Of a stretch of DNA of 18,010 bases, positions 1 to 14,262 are shown piece after piece. A program made the translations under genes and the position numbers. Source of the stretch: Sandaracinaceae bacterium (GTDB lineage Bacteria; Myxococcota_A; Polyangia; Polyangiales; Sandaracinaceae); the NCBI GenBank assembly GCA_044220955.1, contig JBGAQA010000122.1, forward strand, positions 1 to 18,010. Direction: 5' to 3'. The notes under the pieces were generated by a model. That model was given only the letters and a program-made list of their open reading frames with translations. It ran no database searches and was not told the origin of the DNA. How positions within the stretch are numbered: the stretch's first letter is position 1; the number at the start of each line of letters is the position of its first letter.

Positions 1-426
1 GGTCAGCGCGAAGGTGACCACCCGCGCGAGCAGCGGACGCGCGGCCAGCCCCGGCGCGACCCGCGCGAGGACGGCGTCGAGCACGAAGAGCACGATCGCG
101 AGCGCGAGGTTGCCGAGCGGGCCGGCGGCGGCGACGAGGAGCATCCCGCCGCTCATCGACACGGACGAGCGGAAGCGGGTCGGCTGGACGGGGACGGGCT
201 TGGCCCAGCCGAACGGGATCCCGAGCAGCGGAAGGAGCACGGTGCCGATGGGGTCGAGGTGCGCGAGCGGGTCGAGCGTCATCCGACCGAGCTTCTCGGC
301 CGTGTCGTCGCCGAGCGCGTACGCGACGCGCGCGTGCGCCCACTCGTGGACGCCGAGCGAGATCCAGAGCGGGATCAGGAAGAGCGTGCGCTCGAGGAGC
401 GTGTGCAGAGCCCAGCTGGCGCTCAT
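1..426 (-). CDS. Site-2 protease family (M50, YwhC-like) intramembrane zinc metalloprotease; 3' end runs off the window
   Basis: Not in the ORF track. Manual translation from ATG at 426: MSASWALHTLLERTLFLIPLWISLGVHEWAHARVAYALGDDTAEKLGRMTLDPLAHLDPIGTVLLPLLGIPFGWAKPVPVQPTRF...VAAAGPLGN. Shows HExxH (334-348), GDxTA...GRxTLxPLxHxDPxG, GWAKPVPV and AGPxxN, all typical of M50. Confidence 0.93.
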   Translation of the reverse strand, partial: MSASWALHTLLERTLFLIPLWISLGVHEWAHARVAYALGDDTAEKLGRMTLDPLAHLDPIGTVLLPLLGIPFGWAKPVPVQPTRFRSSVSMSGGMLLVAAAGPLGNLALAIVLFVLDAVLARVAPGLAARPLLARVVTFALT

Positions 427-441
427 CGGCCGGCGCCGTCC

Positions 442-1926
442 TCAGCCCGCATCCGGCTGCTCGGCCACCGGCGCGCGCAGCAGCTCGAAGCGCTCCACCG
501 GCTCCGCGCCTTGCGCGCGGATCGAGACGACGTCCGAGCGCGTCAGCACGAGCGCACCGCCCGCGGTCTCGAGCTTGAGCGAGAAGGGGTCGGCCCAGAC
601 GACCGTGCCGGTGTGGAGGTCGCCGCCGCGCACGCGCACCTCCACCGCCAGCGCGCTCGCCGGCTGCGTGACGCCCGAGCTCGCGGCGGTGAGCAGCGCG
701 TCGAGCCGGTCGAGCTGGGTCGACTTCGGCTTGAGGCTCAGCGCCGCGCGCTCGAAGTCGGCCTGGGTCAGCTGCGGCGGCGTCCCCCCGCGCCGCGCCG
801 CCGCCATGGCGGCGACGTTGCAGATCTGCTCGAGGTCCGCGCCGCTCGCCTCGGGTGTGAGGGCCGCGATCGCGGCCAGATCCACGTCGGGCGCGAGCGG
901 CTTGTTCCGCGTGTGCACCTCGAGGACCGTCTGCCGGTCGAGCGCCGAGAAGTCGCCCACGCGCAGCGTGACGTCGAAGCGCCCCGGCCGGAGCAGCGCG
1001 GGATCGAGGACGTCCGCGCGGTTGGTCGCGGCCACGACGACGACGCGCCCGCGCGCTCCGAAGCCGTCGAGGCAGACGAGGAGCTGATCGAGCGACTGCT
1101 CGCGCTCCTGGTGCGTGAGCGACGCGCTCGCGCCGCCGCGCTTGCGGCCGATGGCGTCGAGCTCGTCGATGAACACGACGCAGGGCGCCTTCTTCTTCGC
1201 CTCGTCGAAGAGGTCGCGCACGCGCGCGGCGCCGACGCCGACGAAGAGCTCGACGAATTCCGAGCCGGAGACCTCGAAGAAGGGGAGCTTGGACTCGCCC
1301 GCGAGCGCCTTGGCGAGCATCGTCTTGCCGAAGCCGGGCGGGCCCTCGAGCAGGATGCCCTTCGGTGCCCGCGCGCCGGCGACCTCCCATTTCGCCGGGT
1401 GCTTCAGGAAGTCGACCGTGTCGCGCAGGTACGCCTTCGCCTCCGCCGAGCCGCCGACGTCGGCCCACCCGACCTTCGGCGTCTCGCCGACGAGGCGCGC
1501 CGTCGTCTTGCGGAGCGAGAGCACGCTGCCGGCGTTCCCCTGTGCGCGTCGCACGAAGTAGAGGAAGAGCCCGAGGACGAGCACGACGACGCCGAGCACG
1601 ACGATCACGGTGGTCCACGGGCCGCTTCGATCGGGCGGGTCCGCGTGCCAGCCCACCTCGACCCCGTGGGCCTCGAGCGCTTCGGCGAGGGTGGTCGTGT
1701 ACGTCGCGTCGACCGGGTACTCGCCGCCGCCGACGCGCGTGACGTAGATGCGGTCCTCGCGATCGACGCTCACGAGCGCGACCCGGCCTGCTTCGAGGTC
1801 CGCGTAGAGCGCGCTCGCCGGCTGGCGCGGCGCATCGCCTCCGTCCTCGGAGACGAGCGCGTAGATGCACCCGAAGAGCACGATCAGGGCTACCCAGACG
1901 ACGAACGTTCGGAGGCGCGGCGACAT
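442..1926 (-). CDS. FtsH-like membrane-anchored AAA+ ATPase lacking the M41 protease domain, with a putative Sm/Hfq-like C-terminal domain
   Basis: Two hydrophobic helices flank an FtsH-type extracytoplasmic segment. Walker A GPPGFGKT, pore loop FVGVG, Walker [32 protein letters not shown], lid [10 protein letters not shown]. No HExxH after the AAA module. ATG 1926 preferred over the upstream GTG at 1947. Confidence 0.9.
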
Positions 1927-1947
1927 CGGCGCGAGCCTACGACGCAC

Positions 1948-1986
1948 GTAAGGCTCGTGTAAGGCGGTCTTTGACCGAGCTCTTAC
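1948..1986. promoter_or_regulatory. GTAAGGC direct repeat (11-bp period) plus an inverted CTTAC half-site in a divergent promoter region
   Basis: GTAAGGC at 1948-1954 and 1959-1965; CTTAC at 1982-1986. The geometry resembles OmpR/PhoB-family tandem boxes. Confidence 0.4.
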
Positions 1987-2032
1987 GGGCCCCCCTCGCG
2001 CGCGCCGTCACGCTCGCGCCTGGAGGTTCACG

Positions 2033-2206: not shown

Positions 2207-2273
2207 CCCGAGCCGCGCCGGTGTGCGTCGTACCCGGGCTTCGCCTACGGTTGGCGCCCTCAGGAGGCTCTCG

Positions 2274-4634
2274 ATGGCGAAGGCGATTCGGCGCGTGGCG
2301 GTTCTCGGCTCGGGCGTGATGGGCAGCGGCATCGCCGCGCACATGGCCAACGCGGGGCTCGAGGTGCTCTTGCTCGACATCGCGCCCAAGGATCCCAAGA
2401 CGCCGCGGAGCGGCGTCGCCGCGGCGGCGCTCGCCGGGCTCGCGAAGGCCAAGCCGGCAGCGTTCTTCCACCCGTCGAACGCCAAGCTCGTGAGCGTCGG
2501 CAACCTCGACGACGACCTCGCGAAGGCCGGCGCGTGCGACCTGATCGTCGAGGCGATCGTCGAGCGGCTCGACATCAAGCGCTCGCTCTTCGAGAAGCTC
2601 GAGAAGGTCGTCCAGGATCACACCATCGTCGCGTCGAACACGAGCGGCCTGCGCATCCACGACATGGTCGAGGGGCGCAGCGAGGGCTTCAAGAAGCGCT
2701 TCCTCGTGATGCACTTCTTCAACCCCGTCCGCTACATGAAGCTCCTCGAGCTCGTCGCGGGCCCCGAGACCGATCCCGCGACGGTCGCGACCATCGCGGC
2801 GCTCGGCAAGGAGGCGCTCGGCAAGGGCATCGTCGTCGGCAAGGACACGCCGAACTTCGTGGGCAACCGCATCGGCATCCACTCGATGATGACCACGATC
2901 CACCTGATGCTCGAGATGGGCCTCACGCCCGAGGACGTGGACAACATCACCGGCGTGCCGATGGGCCACCCGAAGAGCGCGTCGTTCCGCACCGCGGACA
3001 TCGTCGGGCTCGACACCTTCGTCCACGTGGCCGACAACTGCTTCGAGGCGCTGCCGGACGACGAGGAGCGCGCCGTCTTCGAGGTGCCGCTTTTCATCCG
3101 CTCGATGGTCGAGAAGAACATCCTCGGCGACAAGACGAAGGGCGGCTTCTACAAGCGCGACAAGGGCGACACGCTGACGCTGGATCCCAGCGCGCTCGCC
3201 TACCGGCCCAAGGGCGGCGACGCGGACATCGCCAAGGCGACCAAGGAGATCTCGAAGATCGAAGACCCGAAGGCGCGCGTGACGGCGCTCGTGAAGGCGA
3301 GGGGCAAGGTCGGCAAGTTCTCGTGGAAGGTGCTCTCGCGCGCGCTCGCGTACGCCGCACGGCGCATCGGCGAGATCACCGACGACGTCGTCGCGATCGA
3401 TGACGCCATGAAGTGGGGATACAACTGGGAGCTCGGTCCCTTCGAGACGTGGGACGCGCTCGGCTTCAAGAAGACGCTCGTCCGGATGAAGAAGGACGGC
3501 ATCGCGATCCCGGCGCGCATCGAGGAGATGGCGGGCAAGGGCGCGCGGAGCTTCTACAAGCAGACGAAGAAGGGCCTCGCGGTGTGGAGCTTCGCCGAGG
3601 GCAAGCACGTGCTGCGGCCGTCGGACCCGCGCGAGCTCCCGCTCGCGAAGGTGCGGCGCGGCGAGGCGCCAGTCCTCGCGAACGCGGGCGCCGAGGCGTG
3701 GGATCTCGGCGAAGGCGTGCTCGGCGTCACGTTCAAGACGAAGGCGAACAGCATCGACCCGGACGTGATCTCGATGCTGCACCAGGCGGCGGAGCGGGCG
3801 GAGACGGACTTCCGCGCGATCGTGATCGCGAACGAGGGCGAGCACTTCTCCGTCGGCGCGAACCTCTTCGGCGTCGTCGTCGCGGCCGGCCAGAAGCAGT
3901 GGGACGAGCTGCGGACGATGGTGAAGGGCTACCAGTCGGCCACGCAGCGCCTGAAGTACGCGCGCGTGCCGGTCGTCGCGGCGCCCTACGGTATGACCCT
4001 CGGCGGCGGTCTCGAGCTCTGCTTCGGCAGCGACGCGACGCAGGCGGCGGCCGAGACGTACGCGGGCCTCGTCGAGGTCGGCGTCGGCCTGATCCCCGGC
4101 GGCGCGGGCACCATGAACATGCTCTGGCGCGCGCTCGACGCGAACGTGCAGGGCGCGACCATCGACACCTACGCCATCGTCACGCAGGTCTTCAAGAACA
4201 TCGCCCTCGCGAACGTCGCCACGAGCGCCGTCGAGGCGCAGCACTTCGGCTACTTCAAGAAGTCGGACGGCGTGAGCTTCGACCGCGCGCGCCAGCTGCA
4301 CGAGGCCAAGGCGCGCGCGATCGGCCTGGCCGAGAGCGGATACCACCCGCCGATCCCCCGCGCGCACGTGCTGCCCGGCGAGAACGGCATCGCCACGCTG
4401 GGCATGATGATCGACACGCTCGTCGCGGGCGGCTACGCGAGCGCGCACGACGCGCTCATCGCGCGCAAGCTCGCCGTCGTGCTCTCGGGCGGCGCGGGCG
4501 GCCACACACACGAGGTCACGGAGCAGGAAGTGCTCGACCTCGAGTGCGAGGCGTTCCTCTCGCTCGCTGGCGAGCCGAAGAGCCAGGAGCGCATGCAGTT
4601 CATGCTGATGAACAACCGTCCTCTGAGGAACTGA
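2274..4634 (+). CDS. fadN: 3-hydroxyacyl-CoA dehydrogenase / enoyl-CoA hydratase (FadN-type, dehydrogenase N-terminal)
   Basis: AGGAGG at 2262-2267. Rossmann VAVLGSGVMGSGIA, EAIVE, ASNTSGL, HFFNPVRYMKLLE, KDTPNFVGNRIG, WELGPFETWD; crotonase part FSVGANL, LGGGLE, GLVEVGVGLIPGGAG; C-terminal PLRN. Confidence 0.93.
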   Translation: MAKAIRRVAVLGSGVMGSGIAAHMANAGLEVLLLDIAPKDPKTPRSGVAAAALAGLAKAKPAAFFHPSNAKLVSVGNLDDDLAKAGACDLIVEAIVERLDIKRSLFEKLEKVVQDHTIVASNTSGLRIHDMVEGRSEGFKKRFLVMHFFNPVRYMKLLELVAGPETDPATVATIAALGKEALGKGIVVGKDTPNFVGNRIGIHSMMTTIHLMLEMGLTPEDVDNITGVPMGHPKSASFRTADIVGLDTFVHVADNCFEALPDDEERAVFEVPLFIRSMVEKNILGDKTKGGFYKRDKGDTLTLDPSALAYRPKGGDADIAKATKEISKIEDPKARVTALVKARGKVGKFSWKVLSRALAYAARRIGEITDDVVAIDDAMKWGYNWELGPFETWDALGFKKTLVRMKKDGIAIPARIEEMAGKGARSFYKQTKKGLAVWSFAEGKHVLRPSDPRELPLAKVRRGEAPVLANAGAEAWDLGEGVLGVTFKTKANSIDPDVISMLHQAAERAETDFRAIVIANEGEHFSVGANLFGVVVAAGQKQWDELRTMVKGYQSATQRLKYARVPVVAAPYGMTLGGGLELCFGSDATQAAAETYAGLVEVGVGLIPGGAGTMNMLWRALDANVQGATIDTYAIVTQVFKNIALANVATSAVEAQHFGYFKKSDGVSFDRARQLHEAKARAIGLAESGYHPPIPRAHVLPGENGIATLGMMIDTLVAGGYASAHDALIARKLAVVLSGGAGGHTHEVTEQEVLDLECEAFLSLAGEPKSQERMQFMLMNNRPLRN

Positions 4635-4779: not shown

Positions 4780-6780
4780 TCAGAGGGACAGCATCCCCAC
4801 GCTGCTCGGCAGCCCGTAGCTCGTCGCCTGCAAGGGGACCATGACGTCCACGAAGCGCACGTCGTGATGGAGGCGCTCCGGATCGTAGGCGTCGACCTGG
4901 ATGCACGCGCCGATCGGGACGTCGCGAACCGTGCCCTCGAAGAGGTCCACCGACGTGTGCGTGGAGGCCGTGTCGTCGCCGACGAGCACGCCGCAGATCG
5001 CGGCGTGTGACGTCTCGAAGCGCGTCACCGTGAGCGCGGCGCCGTGATAGCCCGCCAGCGCGTGTCCGCCCGCGGGCGCGGCACACCCCGGATCCTCGCA
5101 GTAGGCGTCCACGCCCTCGATCGTCACGTCGCTGGCGCTCAGGCTCCCCCCGTTGAGTGCGCCGAGGCCGACGAGGCGCGCGCCGACGATGGCGATCCGC
5201 GAGGCCGTGAGCGTCGAGTCCTGCTCCGACGTGATGGCCGGCCCCGTGACGTCCGCGACGCGTACGTCCGTGAGCGTCAGCGCCGAGCCTTGGTAGGCGT
5301 AGATGGCTTGGCGCACGAGCCGAGAGGCGCTGGCGCGTGTGAGTGTGCCCGTCGCGCCGCTTTGGACGATGAACGCCATCGCGGCCGGGCCCGCGGGCGA
5401 GCTCGTGACCTCGGCCACCGTGAGATCCTCGACGTCGACGGTCGTGCCGGGATCCGTGCCGGCGACCGCGACCAAGACGGCCCGCGCGACCCACGCACGC
5501 CTCAAGATCAGCGCGCCTGCGCTCTTGGCGACGGCGCCCAGGCCCCCGTAGGCGCCCGTCCCCGCGAGATCGCGGATGAGGATGTCGGTGCCCTCGAGCC
5601 GCGACCCGGCGTCTGCCACGCCGAGCCCGAGCCCGAGGTGCTCGAAGCGCGCGCGCGTGAGGCGGACGCTCGCCCCGGTCTGCGCGCCCGCGCCGAGTCC
5701 GTCGCTCGTGTCGGCGCGGCCGTCGCGCGCGACCACGTCGCTCGCCTCGAGCGTCGCGCCGCTCGCCGCTCCGAGGGCGTCGCCGTGGTTGCCTTCGAAC
5801 ACCGCGCGCGAGATCACGGCGCGCGTCCCCGTCGTCTCCGCCAGGACGCCGACGGCGAGGTTCGCAGCGTCGATCCCGGTGCAGTCGACGACGGCGAGAT
5901 CGCTCGCCTCGAGCGCACCGCCCCGGTTGATGAAGACCCCGACGTCGGCGCAGCGGTCGATGACGACCGTGTCGAGGACGAAGTGGTGCCCGGCACCGCC
6001 GCTGCCATCGACCCCGCGGCCGAGGCCGGCGCTCGCGGTGATCCGTCGGAGCGCCACGTGACGGACCGACACGTCGTTCGGTGCGGTCCCGCTGAGGATC
6101 GCCCCGATGCGCGCTCCGTCGATCACCACGTCCTCGATCGTGGCGGGGCCCCCGTTCGCGAGCACGCCCGGGCGGGACGCGCCGTCGATCGAGACGTTGC
6201 GGACCGCCCCCGCACCCTCGAGAAAGATCACCGCGTCGGAGTCCGTGCCCGGGCGGGAGGACGTGAGGCGCGTCCCGTCCACGCACGCGCCGCGCAGCTC
6301 GAGCCCGCTCGGAACGACGACGTCCTCGTCGTAGCGGCCCGTCGCGATCGCGATCACGGCGCTCGGCGGGGCGGCCGCGATCGCGGCGCCGAGGGTCCGG
6401 AACGGATGGGCGCGTGATCCGTCCCCGCCGCTCGCCGCTCCGTCGTCGACGTGCACGATCGCGCGGTCGGTCGGGAGGTCGGCGGGCCAGCCGTCGGCTG
6501 CGCACGCGCTCCCGATGCGCTCGCAGCCCGGATGCCCGGGGAAGTGAGCCTCGTCGAACGCACAGTCCGTGCGTCGCCCACCCTCCGGCCACGGATCGCA
6601 GACGGCGGGCGCGCCCGGGATCTCGCGCCAGCCCTCGGGGCACGGCGTGAGGACGACGTCGGCCGGCGGCGCGGGCGGCGCGGCGAGCCCTGCGTCGCCC
6701 TGTGGCCTCGGACCGGTGTCCGCGCTCTGCGGAGGAGCCGCGCAGGAGAGGAGCAGCAGGGTGAGGGCGCTTCGGTACAT
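4780..6780 (-). CDS. Lipoprotein with Cys-rich N-terminal module and DUF1565/right-handed parallel beta-helix (pectin-lyase-like) domain
   Basis: MYRSALTLLLLSC lipoprotein-like signal from ATG 6780. VHVDDGAASGGDGSRAHPFRTLGAAIAAA...IAIATGRYDE is the typical beta-helix N-cap, followed by repetitive GV/GL...LEASDxxV beta-coils. Confidence 0.8.
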   Translation of the reverse strand: MYRSALTLLLLSCAAPPQSADTGPRPQGDAGLAAPPAPPADVVLTPCPEGWREIPGAPAVCDPWPEGGRRTDCAFDEAHFPGHPGCERIGSACAADGWPADLPTDRAIVHVDDGAASGGDGSRAHPFRTLGAAIAAAPPSAVIAIATGRYDEDVVVPSGLELRGACVDGTRLTSSRPGTDSDAVIFLEGAGAVRNVSIDGASRPGVLANGGPATIEDVVIDGARIGAILSGTAPNDVSVRHVALRRITASAGLGRGVDGSGGAGHHFVLDTVVIDRCADVGVFINRGGALEASDLAVVDCTGIDAANLAVGVLAETTGTRAVISRAVFEGNHGDALGAASGATLEASDVVARDGRADTSDGLGAGAQTGASVRLTRARFEHLGLGLGVADAGSRLEGTDILIRDLAGTGAYGGLGAVAKSAGALILRRAWVARAVLVAVAGTDPGTTVDVEDLTVAEVTSSPAGPAAMAFIVQSGATGTLTRASASRLVRQAIYAYQGSALTLTDVRVADVTGPAITSEQDSTLTASRIAIVGARLVGLGALNGGSLSASDVTIEGVDAYCEDPGCAAPAGGHALAGYHGAALTVTRFETSHAAICGVLVGDDTASTHTSVDLFEGTVRDVPIGACIQVDAYDPERLHHDVRFVDVMVPLQATSYGLPSSVGMLSL

Positions 6781-6851
6781 CGGAACGAAGGCTACTCCCT
6801 CAAGCTCGTTCGAGGCATTGACGTGCGCGTGTCGGGGCGTAGACGGGACCC

Positions 6852-7904
6852 ATGACACGCGTGCTCGTCACGGGCGCTGGCGGGCACATCGGCAACAACC
6901 TCGTCCGCGACCTCGTCGCGCATGGCTACGAGGTCGTGGGCCTGGTCCGCGAGGCGAGCGACACGACGGGCCTCACGGGCGTCGCCGTGAAGCTCGCGCG
7001 CGGCGACGTGCGCGACGCGGCGGCCGTCGGGCGCGCGACGGAGGGCTGCGAGCTCGTCTTCCACCTCGCCTCGCCCTACGCGACGTGGGCCAAGGATCCG
7101 GCGACCATCGTCGAGCCCGCCGTCCGCGGCGTGGAGAACGTGCTGCGCGCCGCGAAGGAGCGCGGTGTCCGGCGCGTGGTCGTCACGAGCAGCAGCAACG
7201 CCGTCGGCTTCTCGCTCGATCCGCAGAAGCCGCGCGACGAGACGCAGTGGAACGATCGGACCAAGAGCCCTTACATCCGCGCCAAGAACGAGCAGGAGAA
7301 GAGGTGCTGGGCGCTCGCCGAGGAGCTCGGCCTCGACGTCGTCACGGTACTGCCGACCGCGGTGCTCGGCCGCTTCGACTACCGCCGCACGCCGACGACG
7401 GGGCCCTTCGTCGACGCGCTCACCGGCAAGGGGCCCGTGCCCTTCGCCATGAACCTCGTCGACGTCCGGGACGTCGCGCGGACGCACGTGCTCGCCGCGG
7501 AGCGCGGCAAGGCGGGCGAGCGCTACCTCGCGGGCGGCTACGACGCCGACGTGAAGACGATCGCGACGATGATCGAGCAGGTCACCGGCAAGCGCCCGGC
7601 CGAGGGGCTGCCGCCGCTCTGGGTGCTGCGCATCGTCGCATCGATCGCCGGCCCGCTCGCGCACCTGACGGGCAAGGCGCCGATGATCACGAACGAGCTG
7701 CTCGACGACGCGGCGGGCGGCAATGCGGTGTTCGACTGCAGCAAGGCGCGAAGGGAGCTCGGGCTCGAGCCGAAGAAGCCCGACGAGGTCGTGCGCGAGG
7801 CGGTGCGCTGGGCCCTCTTCATGGGCTGGCTGCCGCCCGCGCTCGCGGAGCGCGTCCGCGCGACCTCGGCGCCCGAGGCCGGCTGGCCCGCGCCGCGCGC
7901 CTGA
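6852..7904 (+). CDS. NAD-dependent epimerase/dehydratase (extended SDR, dihydroflavonol reductase/HpnA-like)
   Basis: VLVTGAGGHIG, GDVRD, VFHLAS, VVVTSSS, catalytic YIRAK (YxxxK), VDVRDVARTH, GERYL. Confidence 0.92.
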   Translation: MTRVLVTGAGGHIGNNLVRDLVAHGYEVVGLVREASDTTGLTGVAVKLARGDVRDAAAVGRATEGCELVFHLASPYATWAKDPATIVEPAVRGVENVLRAAKERGVRRVVVTSSSNAVGFSLDPQKPRDETQWNDRTKSPYIRAKNEQEKRCWALAEELGLDVVTVLPTAVLGRFDYRRTPTTGPFVDALTGKGPVPFAMNLVDVRDVARTHVLAAERGKAGERYLAGGYDADVKTIATMIEQVTGKRPAEGLPPLWVLRIVASIAGPLAHLTGKAPMITNELLDDAAGGNAVFDCSKARRELGLEPKKPDEVVREAVRWALFMGWLPPALAERVRATSAPEAGWPAPRA

Positions 7905-8762: not shown

Positions 8763-9932
<1,170 letters not shown>

Positions 9933-13158: not shown

Positions 13159-14262
13159 ATGACGCCGTTCCGCGTTCTCCCGGTGCTCGGTCTCTCGATG
13201 GCCCTCGCTGCGGGCTGCGGTGGAGGCGGCACGGGCCCCGGCGACGACGCCGGCACCGTGCCCCGCGACTCCGGCCCCGGCAACGACGCGTTCGTGGCGC
13301 CTGGCACCGACGCGTGGGCGGCAGGCGACGACGCGTGGGCGGCGGGTGACGACGCGTGGGCGGCGGGTGACGACGCCTGGACCACGCCTGGCGCCGACTC
13401 CGGGACCACGAGCGCGACCGCGCCCGATCAGCCCGGGCCCTACGCCGTCACCATGTCGTCGACGATGATCACGGGGGCGACCCTCGTGTCGTTCGCGCCG
13501 ACGCTCGCGTCGGGCGAGCGCGCGCCGCTCGTCGTCTTCAAGCACGGCTACCAGCTCTCGAGCGCCAACTACGCGATGCTGCTGCAGCGGATCGCGTCTC
13601 ACGGGTTCTTCGTGATCGGCGTGAACACCTCGAGCAGCTTCATCGGCGGTCCGACCAACATCGACGAGCGCGACGCGATGACCCACGCGATCGACTGGGC
13701 CCTTGCGACGGCACCCTACGCGAGCAGCGTCGACGGCGCGCACGTCGCGGTGATGGGCCACAGCCGCGGTGGCAAGGTGGCCGTCCTCGCGGCGGCGGCC
13801 GACGCGCGCGTCACCGCGGCGCTCCTGCTCGACCCGGTGAACGGTTGCGGTCCGGGCATGGGCTTCAGCGCCACCTGCCCCGATGCCACGAGCGCGACCC
13901 AGGCGGGCGCGCTCGCGATCCCGGTGGGCGTGATGGGCGAGACGAACGACGGCTCCGGCGGCTTCATGCCCTGCGCGCCCACCGCGCAGAACTACCACAC
14001 GATCTTCGCGGGCCTCGACGCTGCGTCGTGGGCCGTCGAGTGGACGTTCACCGATGCGGTCCACATGACCTTCACCGACGACGGCGGCGGCACCTTCGGC
14101 AGCTTCTGCGCGATGGAGCCCTCGAACGTCGCCGCGCTGCGCGACGCGATCCGCACGATGAGCGTCGCCTTCGCGCGCTACCATCTGCGCGGCGACACCG
14201 ACATGGCGGCCTGGCTCACCGGTGCGTCTCTCCCCGCGGGCATCACGCGCGTCGGTCCCTGA
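13159..14262 (+). CDS. Lipoprotein alpha/beta-hydrolase (chlorophyllase/cutinase-like)
   Basis: GAGG RBS; LAAG-C lipobox; PGPY, PLVVFKHGY, IASHGFFV, GHSRGG nucleophile elbow, LLDPV, HMTFTD. Confidence 0.88.
   Translation: MTPFRVLPVLGLSMALAAGCGGGGTGPGDDAGTVPRDSGPGNDAFVAPGTDAWAAGDDAWAAGDDAWAAGDDAWTTPGADSGTTSATAPDQPGPYAVTMSSTMITGATLVSFAPTLASGERAPLVVFKHGYQLSSANYAMLLQRIASHGFFVIGVNTSSSFIGGPTNIDERDAMTHAIDWALATAPYASSVDGAHVAVMGHSRGGKVAVLAAAADARVTAALLLDPVNGCGPGMGFSATCPDATSATQAGALAIPVGVMGETNDGSGGFMPCAPTAQNYHTIFAGLDAASWAVEWTFTDAVHMTFTDDGGGTFGSFCAMEPSNVAALRDAIRTMSVAFARYHLRGDTDMAAWLTGASLPAGITRVGP
13309..13380 (+). repeat. In-frame 21-bp tandem repeat, about 3.4 copies, encoding DAWAAGD
   Basis: Units GACGCGTGGGCGGCRGGYGAC start at 13309, 13330 and 13351, with a partial unit at 13372. 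Confidence 0.95.

Follow-up and report, generated by a model that had tools for sequence, protein, structure and literature searches.

An FtsH-derived ATPase with a predicted Sm/Hfq-like domain in place of its protease domain is paired with an M50 protease gene in mostly uncultured Myxococcota

Introduction

Motors of the FtsH family thread polypeptides by means of aromatic pore loops to a protease ring that is flat and symmetric (bioRxiv 10.1101/189316). In yeast mitochondria an FtsH-family motor, the m-AAA protease, which itself is proteolytically intact, has as a side activity the dislocation of Ccp1 for a separate intramembrane protease, the serine rhomboid Pcp1; its own proteolysis is not required for this (PMC6210556). 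Plant FtsHi and Ycf2-FtsHi proteins are FtsH paralogs without the proteolytic motif that act as ATP-driven motors, most FtsHi keeping the domain but with its HExxH mutated, and belonging to a heteromeric chloroplast motor (PMC8197885). Here we describe a gene from a Sandaracinaceae bacterium (contig JBGAQA010000122.1) that occupies positions 442..1926 of an 18,010-nucleotide stretch of DNA, henceforth referred to as the window. This gene encodes an FtsH-derived AAA+ ATPase that has no M41 protease domain, carries a C-terminal domain with a predicted Sm/Hfq fold, and is followed directly by a gene for an M50 (site-2) intramembrane zinc protease.

The protein shares with FtsH (TIGR01241) the two membrane helices, the extracytoplasmic domain, the AAA+ core and the lid, and differs from it in lacking M41 and HExxH, in having an Sm/Hfq-like tail and in being paired with an M50 gene. 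Compared to the yeast system, it would be one half of a bacterial gene pair dedicated to the task, in which the protease is a zinc M50 and the motor has no protease domain of its own; compared to FtsHi, it has a predicted Sm domain and a putative M50 partner, neither of which is mentioned in the available text of PMC8197885. Cyanobacterial Hfq (PF21979; 3hfn and 3hfo) resembles the tail in its Sm fold, its W-x-D motif and the loss of RNA-binding residues, and is tied to an ATPase, PilB (PMC10989914); however, it is a stand-alone protein, whereas the tail is fused to an FtsH motor, has a longer linker from helix to first strand and contains an invariant lysine, K451. The partner protease has in common with short SpoIVFB-like M50/site-2 proteases an HExxH motif in the first membrane helix and the motif N-x-x-P-x-x-P-L-D-G. 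The partner M50s are ~190-225 amino acids (aa) long, no PDZ or CBS domain is apparent in them as judged from length and alignment, and their clade is mostly coupled to the ATPase.

Results

The window belongs to a genome bin of 7.5 Mb and 72.5% GC, and at least half of the sampled words of window positions 1-2000 are present in ten sequencing runs from four studies of activated sludge or bioreactors. The fusion gene, its parts and its partner are arranged as follows.

442..1926 (-): FtsH-derived, protease-less AAA+ ATPase with a C-terminal Sm/Hfq-like domain; 494 aa, open reading frame translation
1849..1905 (-): transmembrane helix 1, approximately residues 8-26; hydrophobic helix 3-26 in the AlphaFold2 (AF2) model, hydropathy peaks
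1627..1839 (-): FtsH-type extracytoplasmic domain, approximately residues 30-100; Pfam FtsH_ext, E 1.1e-4, below cut-off
1552..1620 (-): transmembrane helix 2 (TM2), approximately residues 103-125; AF2 model and hydropathy
958..1479 (-): AAA+ core; Pfam AAA, E 2.2e-41
1344-1321, 1245-1237, 1179-1162 and 1029-979 (-): AAA+ motifs, respectively Walker A, F-V-G pore loop, Walker B, and second region of homology (SRH) with arginine fingers
751..888 (-): AAA+ lid domain, residues 347-392; Pfam AAA_lid_3, E 4e-12
682..708 (-): helix of the Sm/Hfq-like domain, residues 407-415; D409 in 65 of 66 aligned family members
514..648 (-): five-stranded Sm/Hfq-like barrel, residues 427-471; profile matches, model and alignment
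445..510 (-): C-terminal extension, of low confidence; long form in 62 of 70 members, often ending P-D-x-A/G
1..426 (-): gene for an M50 (site-2) intramembrane zinc protease, starting 15 nt behind the fusion and truncated by the contig edge; Pfam Peptidase_M50, E 6.4e-5, below cut-off
348-334 (-): HEWAH, the HExxH motif of the M50 gene

The start codon of the fusion, the ATG at 1926, agrees with the start of the closest ortholog. A Pfam scan of the 494-aa protein returned FtsH_ext at residues 11-91 (below cut-off), AAA at 191-323 and AAA_lid_3 at 347-392, and did not find Peptidase_M41. Modelled at full length with AF2 (mean predicted local distance difference test 87, predicted template modelling score 0.66), the protein comprises two membrane helices, an extracytoplasmic domain, an AAA core, a lid and a compact C-terminal domain, and its best structural matches are FtsH and Ycf2-FtsHi chains. 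Across the 66 aligned family members the motor motifs (Walker A, F-V-G pore loop, Walker B, SRH arginines) are near-invariant, and HExxH after the lid occurs in none. The FtsH architecture with intact motor motifs and the missing M41 domain and HExxH, both put forward in an initial annotation made from the sequence alone, are thus borne out by the Pfam scan and the 66 members and, for the architecture, by the AF2 model too. A frameshift hiding an M41 domain, which that annotation had named as a possible refutation, is ruled out, as contigs from four public runs contain no insertion or deletion across the region; one public contig covers window 1-1005 with a single difference and no gaps. Strain differences in the public-run contigs are synonymous in 15 of 17 cases, compared to 27% of all possible single changes, and the two that fall in the tail are both synonymous.

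Conservation of TM2 is low, with a mean identity of 26% to the protein of the window, and the extracytoplasmic domain has shrunk to a loop of at most 17 aa in 10 of the 52 members with two detected helices; that this domain is dispensable in those members points to the membrane and cytoplasmic parts as the protein's core. One fusion (L047:2-1597) is without the AAA stretch right before Walker A, through either a deletion or an assembly error.

The fusion family has a single origin within FtsH. In a tree of AAA domains (six short sequences left out; root placed by midpoint only), a 100/100 branch, with a stem of 0.68, separates 60 fusion domains on one side from 12 M41-bearing FtsHs. The genome has its own canonical ftsH on contig C273, which encodes 640 aa with HEAGH and to which the fusion is 45.6% identical over 397 aa. 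Against TIGR01241 the canonical protein scores 838.1 bits and the fusion 391.7 (cut-off 600); with this score and no M41 domain, the fusion is not FtsH proper.

The tail after the lid is 97 aa long, and the Sm-like stretch picked out in the initial annotation corresponds to its residues 428-471 (window 645-514). All 12 of its PDB profile matches are Hfq/LSm proteins, the top one being cyanobacterial Hfq 3hfn (E 2.8e-5). The tail matches Pfam Hfq_1 (PF21979) with E 1.1e-4 and 22.7 bits (gathering cut-off 27 bits) and NCBIfam Hfq_rel_Cyano with E 1.5e-4, below cut-off, while 22 of 23 tail homologs match PF21979 at E<=0.05 (best 6.4e-7) and 2 of 49 homologs carry a precomputed PF21979 annotation. 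The tail model consists of an N-terminal helix and a five-stranded bent barrel, and in the 66 aligned members G440, W444 and K451 of the barrel are invariant, K/R463 is kept in 66 and D446 in 63. From the profile matches and the model, the tail is predicted to have the Sm/Hfq fold, in agreement with the earlier proposal, rather than to be disordered or of another fold. Nor is this conserved tail a degenerate M41 domain: a tail profile has no similarity to the C-terminal 240 aa (M41 region) of the genome's own FtsH (hhalign probability 0.2%), and ~100 aa with a predicted Sm fold stand where FtsHi would retain an inactive M41-like domain.

Most of the Hfq RNA-binding residues have gone from the tail, with only the core Asp and Lys/Arg retained across the 66 members. 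The positions aligned with the RNA-contact residues Tyr/Phe25, Phe42, Tyr55 and His57 of Hfq (E. coli numbering) are variable and mostly non-aromatic, and residues 406-471 are mildly acidic (mean net charge -1.9). RNA chaperoning in the manner of Hfq is therefore unlikely, and the RNA-binding option raised in the initial annotation is disfavoured. At the extreme C-terminus (window 445-456), the P-D-x-A/G ending is seen in the 62 long-tailed members to differing degrees: 37 have P at position -4, 29 have D at -3 and 42 have A or G as last residue; the extension is absent in 8 of 70 members. This ending could be a docking or degradation signal.

The initial annotation, right about the architecture and the Sm-like tail, overlooked the coupled M50 gene directly downstream, which gives the best hint at function. 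In the first 19 loci, an M50 gene lies directly behind the fusion on the same strand in every case, its start overlapping the fusion stop codon in 14 and lying 1-15 nt behind it in 5. Full-length M50 orthologs carry both HExxH and PLDG, the latter containing the LDG motif that holds the third zinc ligand; among these 19 partners HExxH is present in all and PLDG in the 18 that are complete, the window's copy stopping before this motif at the contig end. A further 18 loci, found via the tail alone, represent 18 of the 21 new carriers in the order of genome G440. In each of the 18, AAA domain and tail share a reading frame, HExxH is absent downstream of the AAA domain, and an M50 gene with HExxH and PLDG follows directly, the two genes joined by a TGATG overlap in 13. 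An M50 gene is immediately downstream in 37/37 loci examined, which come from six families and are not independent. Within the window's family, the operon M50 type and the tail occur in exactly the same 3 of 32 genomes. No third common neighbour was seen, the other genes varying between loci (38 selected neighbours from other loci were scanned).

Three isolated observations concern the surroundings of M50 genes. In three loci with an M50 gene of this type and no ATPase (L093, L094 and L097, of four such M50s), a similar ~340-aa gene comes next, and both copies scanned are DUF2167 proteins, possibly an alternative M50 partner. The window's own genome contains, near a contig end (G000:C116:3588-3872, L057), a C-terminal-only piece of an operon-type M50 in frame with unrelated sequence; as it has no overlap with the window's end, it is not the direct continuation of the window M50 but a paralogous fragment or a chimeric join. 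A reverse-transcriptase gene lies closely behind the pair in one genome (L048:8492-10000).

A search of longer proteins for the tail gave 49 matches among 8000 scored candidates; 47 of these have AAA or lid domains, none has M41 listed, and many are named FtsH by the source databases. One match comes from a record labelled Planctomycetes, the family being otherwise mostly from uncultured Myxococcota. The distribution is patchy: the three carriers in the window's family all belong to the window's genus, a class sample yielded the tail in 1 of 401 genomes, namely the window's own, and a phylum sample in 19 of 401, where true fusions account for 16 of the other 18. Carriers are more frequent in the order of genome G440 (35 of 151 genomes), where two families have them in 22 of 33 and 10 of 22; the large genome searches scored 12-33 candidates per genome, so that carriers may be missed. 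Canonical FtsH is present in 5/5 other carriers examined. Canonical Hfq was found in none of five carriers searched, with a control search that was positive in 5 of 14 known genomes.

Elsewhere in the window, a 3-hydroxyacyl-CoA dehydrogenase/enoyl-CoA hydratase gene (2223-4634) and, apart from it, a thiolase-like open reading frame (8763-9932; judged by eye, no Pfam match) are ordinary fatty-acid degradation genes. Positions 4780-6858 encode a protein of 692 aa whose N-terminal part contains Cys and which includes a right-handed beta-helix region, and 13159-14262 a lipoprotein-like alpha/beta hydrolase with chlorophyllase and PETase-like Pfam matches and a short 'DAWAAGD' repeat in its linker.

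Discussion

We lean, with modest confidence, towards a reading of these sequences in which the FtsH-derived ATPase and the M50 protease would form a two-part, ATP-driven machine for the cleavage of membrane proteins, with the Sm domain as the base of the hexamer. Six subunits would form a ring in which the Sm domains assume the base-ring role of FtsH's M41 ring. The pore loops would seize a membrane substrate by its cytoplasmic part, pull on it and shift or unwind its membrane helix, and the M50 protease would cut the pulled helix; because no degradation chamber is attached, the product would be threaded out and released rather than shredded. No fixed place beside the pair encodes a substrate. 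Speaking for this reading are the constant gene pairing, the shared occurrence of tail and M50 type in the window's family, the varying other neighbours, the near-invariant motor motifs without HExxH, the single branch of fusions, the retention of canonical FtsH, the mostly synonymous strain differences and the dispensable extracytoplasmic domain, with the m-AAA/Pcp1 couple of yeast as a precedent. A stronger version, in which the motor with its Sm ring would be docked to a site-2 protease of its own and intramembrane cleavage would need mechanical pulling, is tentative.

Strict dependence of the protease on the motor is where this reading meets contrary evidence. Every motor seen came with the protease, yet the protease does occur on its own: the M50 profile matched 113 of 401 phylum genomes, 4 of the best 20 matches are in genomes without a detectable fusion, and these four sit inside the 97/96 clade formed by the 19 operon M50s.

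A role of the Sm domain as scaffold or adaptor, as suggested in the initial annotation, is plausible. As an Sm fold need not form a ring, as in MscS (PMC3710371), the main alternative keeps the same pair and makes the Sm domain a protein-binding adaptor, for a substrate, the M50 protease or a downstream protease, instead of the ring base. The closeness of the tail to 3hfn, with its shared W-x-D motif and the sub-threshold Hfq_rel_Cyano match, speaks for this alternative; cyanobacterial Hfq is without RNA-binding residues and forms complexes with PilB and EbsA (PMC10989914). W444 and K451, both invariant, could provide a surface for binding. Hfq rings are six-fold, as is the FtsH motor, and this common symmetry favours the ring; we consider an adaptor instead of a ring unlikely, and the one role does not preclude the other.

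The genes of site-2 proteases often lie next to those of their substrates. The ATPase could be a regulated substrate of the M50 protease, the AAA-Sm part entering the cytoplasm and acting as a signal once a membrane helix has been cut, and the one-directional pairing, in which the ATPase is always with an M50 and the M50 sometimes alone, would suit such an arrangement. However, TM2, whose cleavage would free the motor, is oriented opposite to typical site-2 protease substrates (as inferred from FtsH topology) and is poorly conserved, and 10 of 52 members do without the putative sensor domain, which makes this explanation rather improbable. We would place little more than a slim chance on the fusion being a pseudo-protease that joins canonical FtsH in a complex or regulates it, in the manner of plant FtsHi, with the M50 gene no more than co-regulated. 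FtsHi pseudo-proteases have a role in an import motor (PMC8197885), the best structural matches of the full model include Ycf2-FtsHi chains and canonical FtsH is present in 6/6 carriers checked; yet no M41 scaffold remains for stacking with FtsH subunits, the long stem sets the clade apart, and the overlap of stop and start codons with M50 would be left unexplained. A membrane-tethered, Hfq-type RNA-binding ring whose motor remodels RNA-protein complexes is very improbable: it draws on the nearest fold and profile being Hfq, the retained Sm-core aspartate and lysine/arginine, and the absence of Hfq from the searches of five carriers, but is opposed by the unconserved RNA-contact positions and acidic charge and leaves the protease partner unexplained.

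All parts of the two-part system proposed here come from known families, while their combination is undescribed in the literature searched; that search, which covered few subscription papers, returned no description of the architecture, the gene pair or the protease type. Coupling of an AAA+ protein to an intramembrane protease is known as a mitochondrial side activity, and no dedicated bacterial pair was found described. The finding flags a family that is labelled as ordinary FtsH in databases, and its compact motor and short protease make up a two-gene cassette that can be directly expressed and tested. It is still debated how stable membrane helices reach the active sites of intramembrane proteases; to this question the pair, if our reading is true, would contribute a dedicated AAA+/site-2 protease machine. 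The Sm ring would then be the polypeptide-conducting base of an unfoldase, and the Sm/Hfq fold would serve as a structural ring in protein handling.
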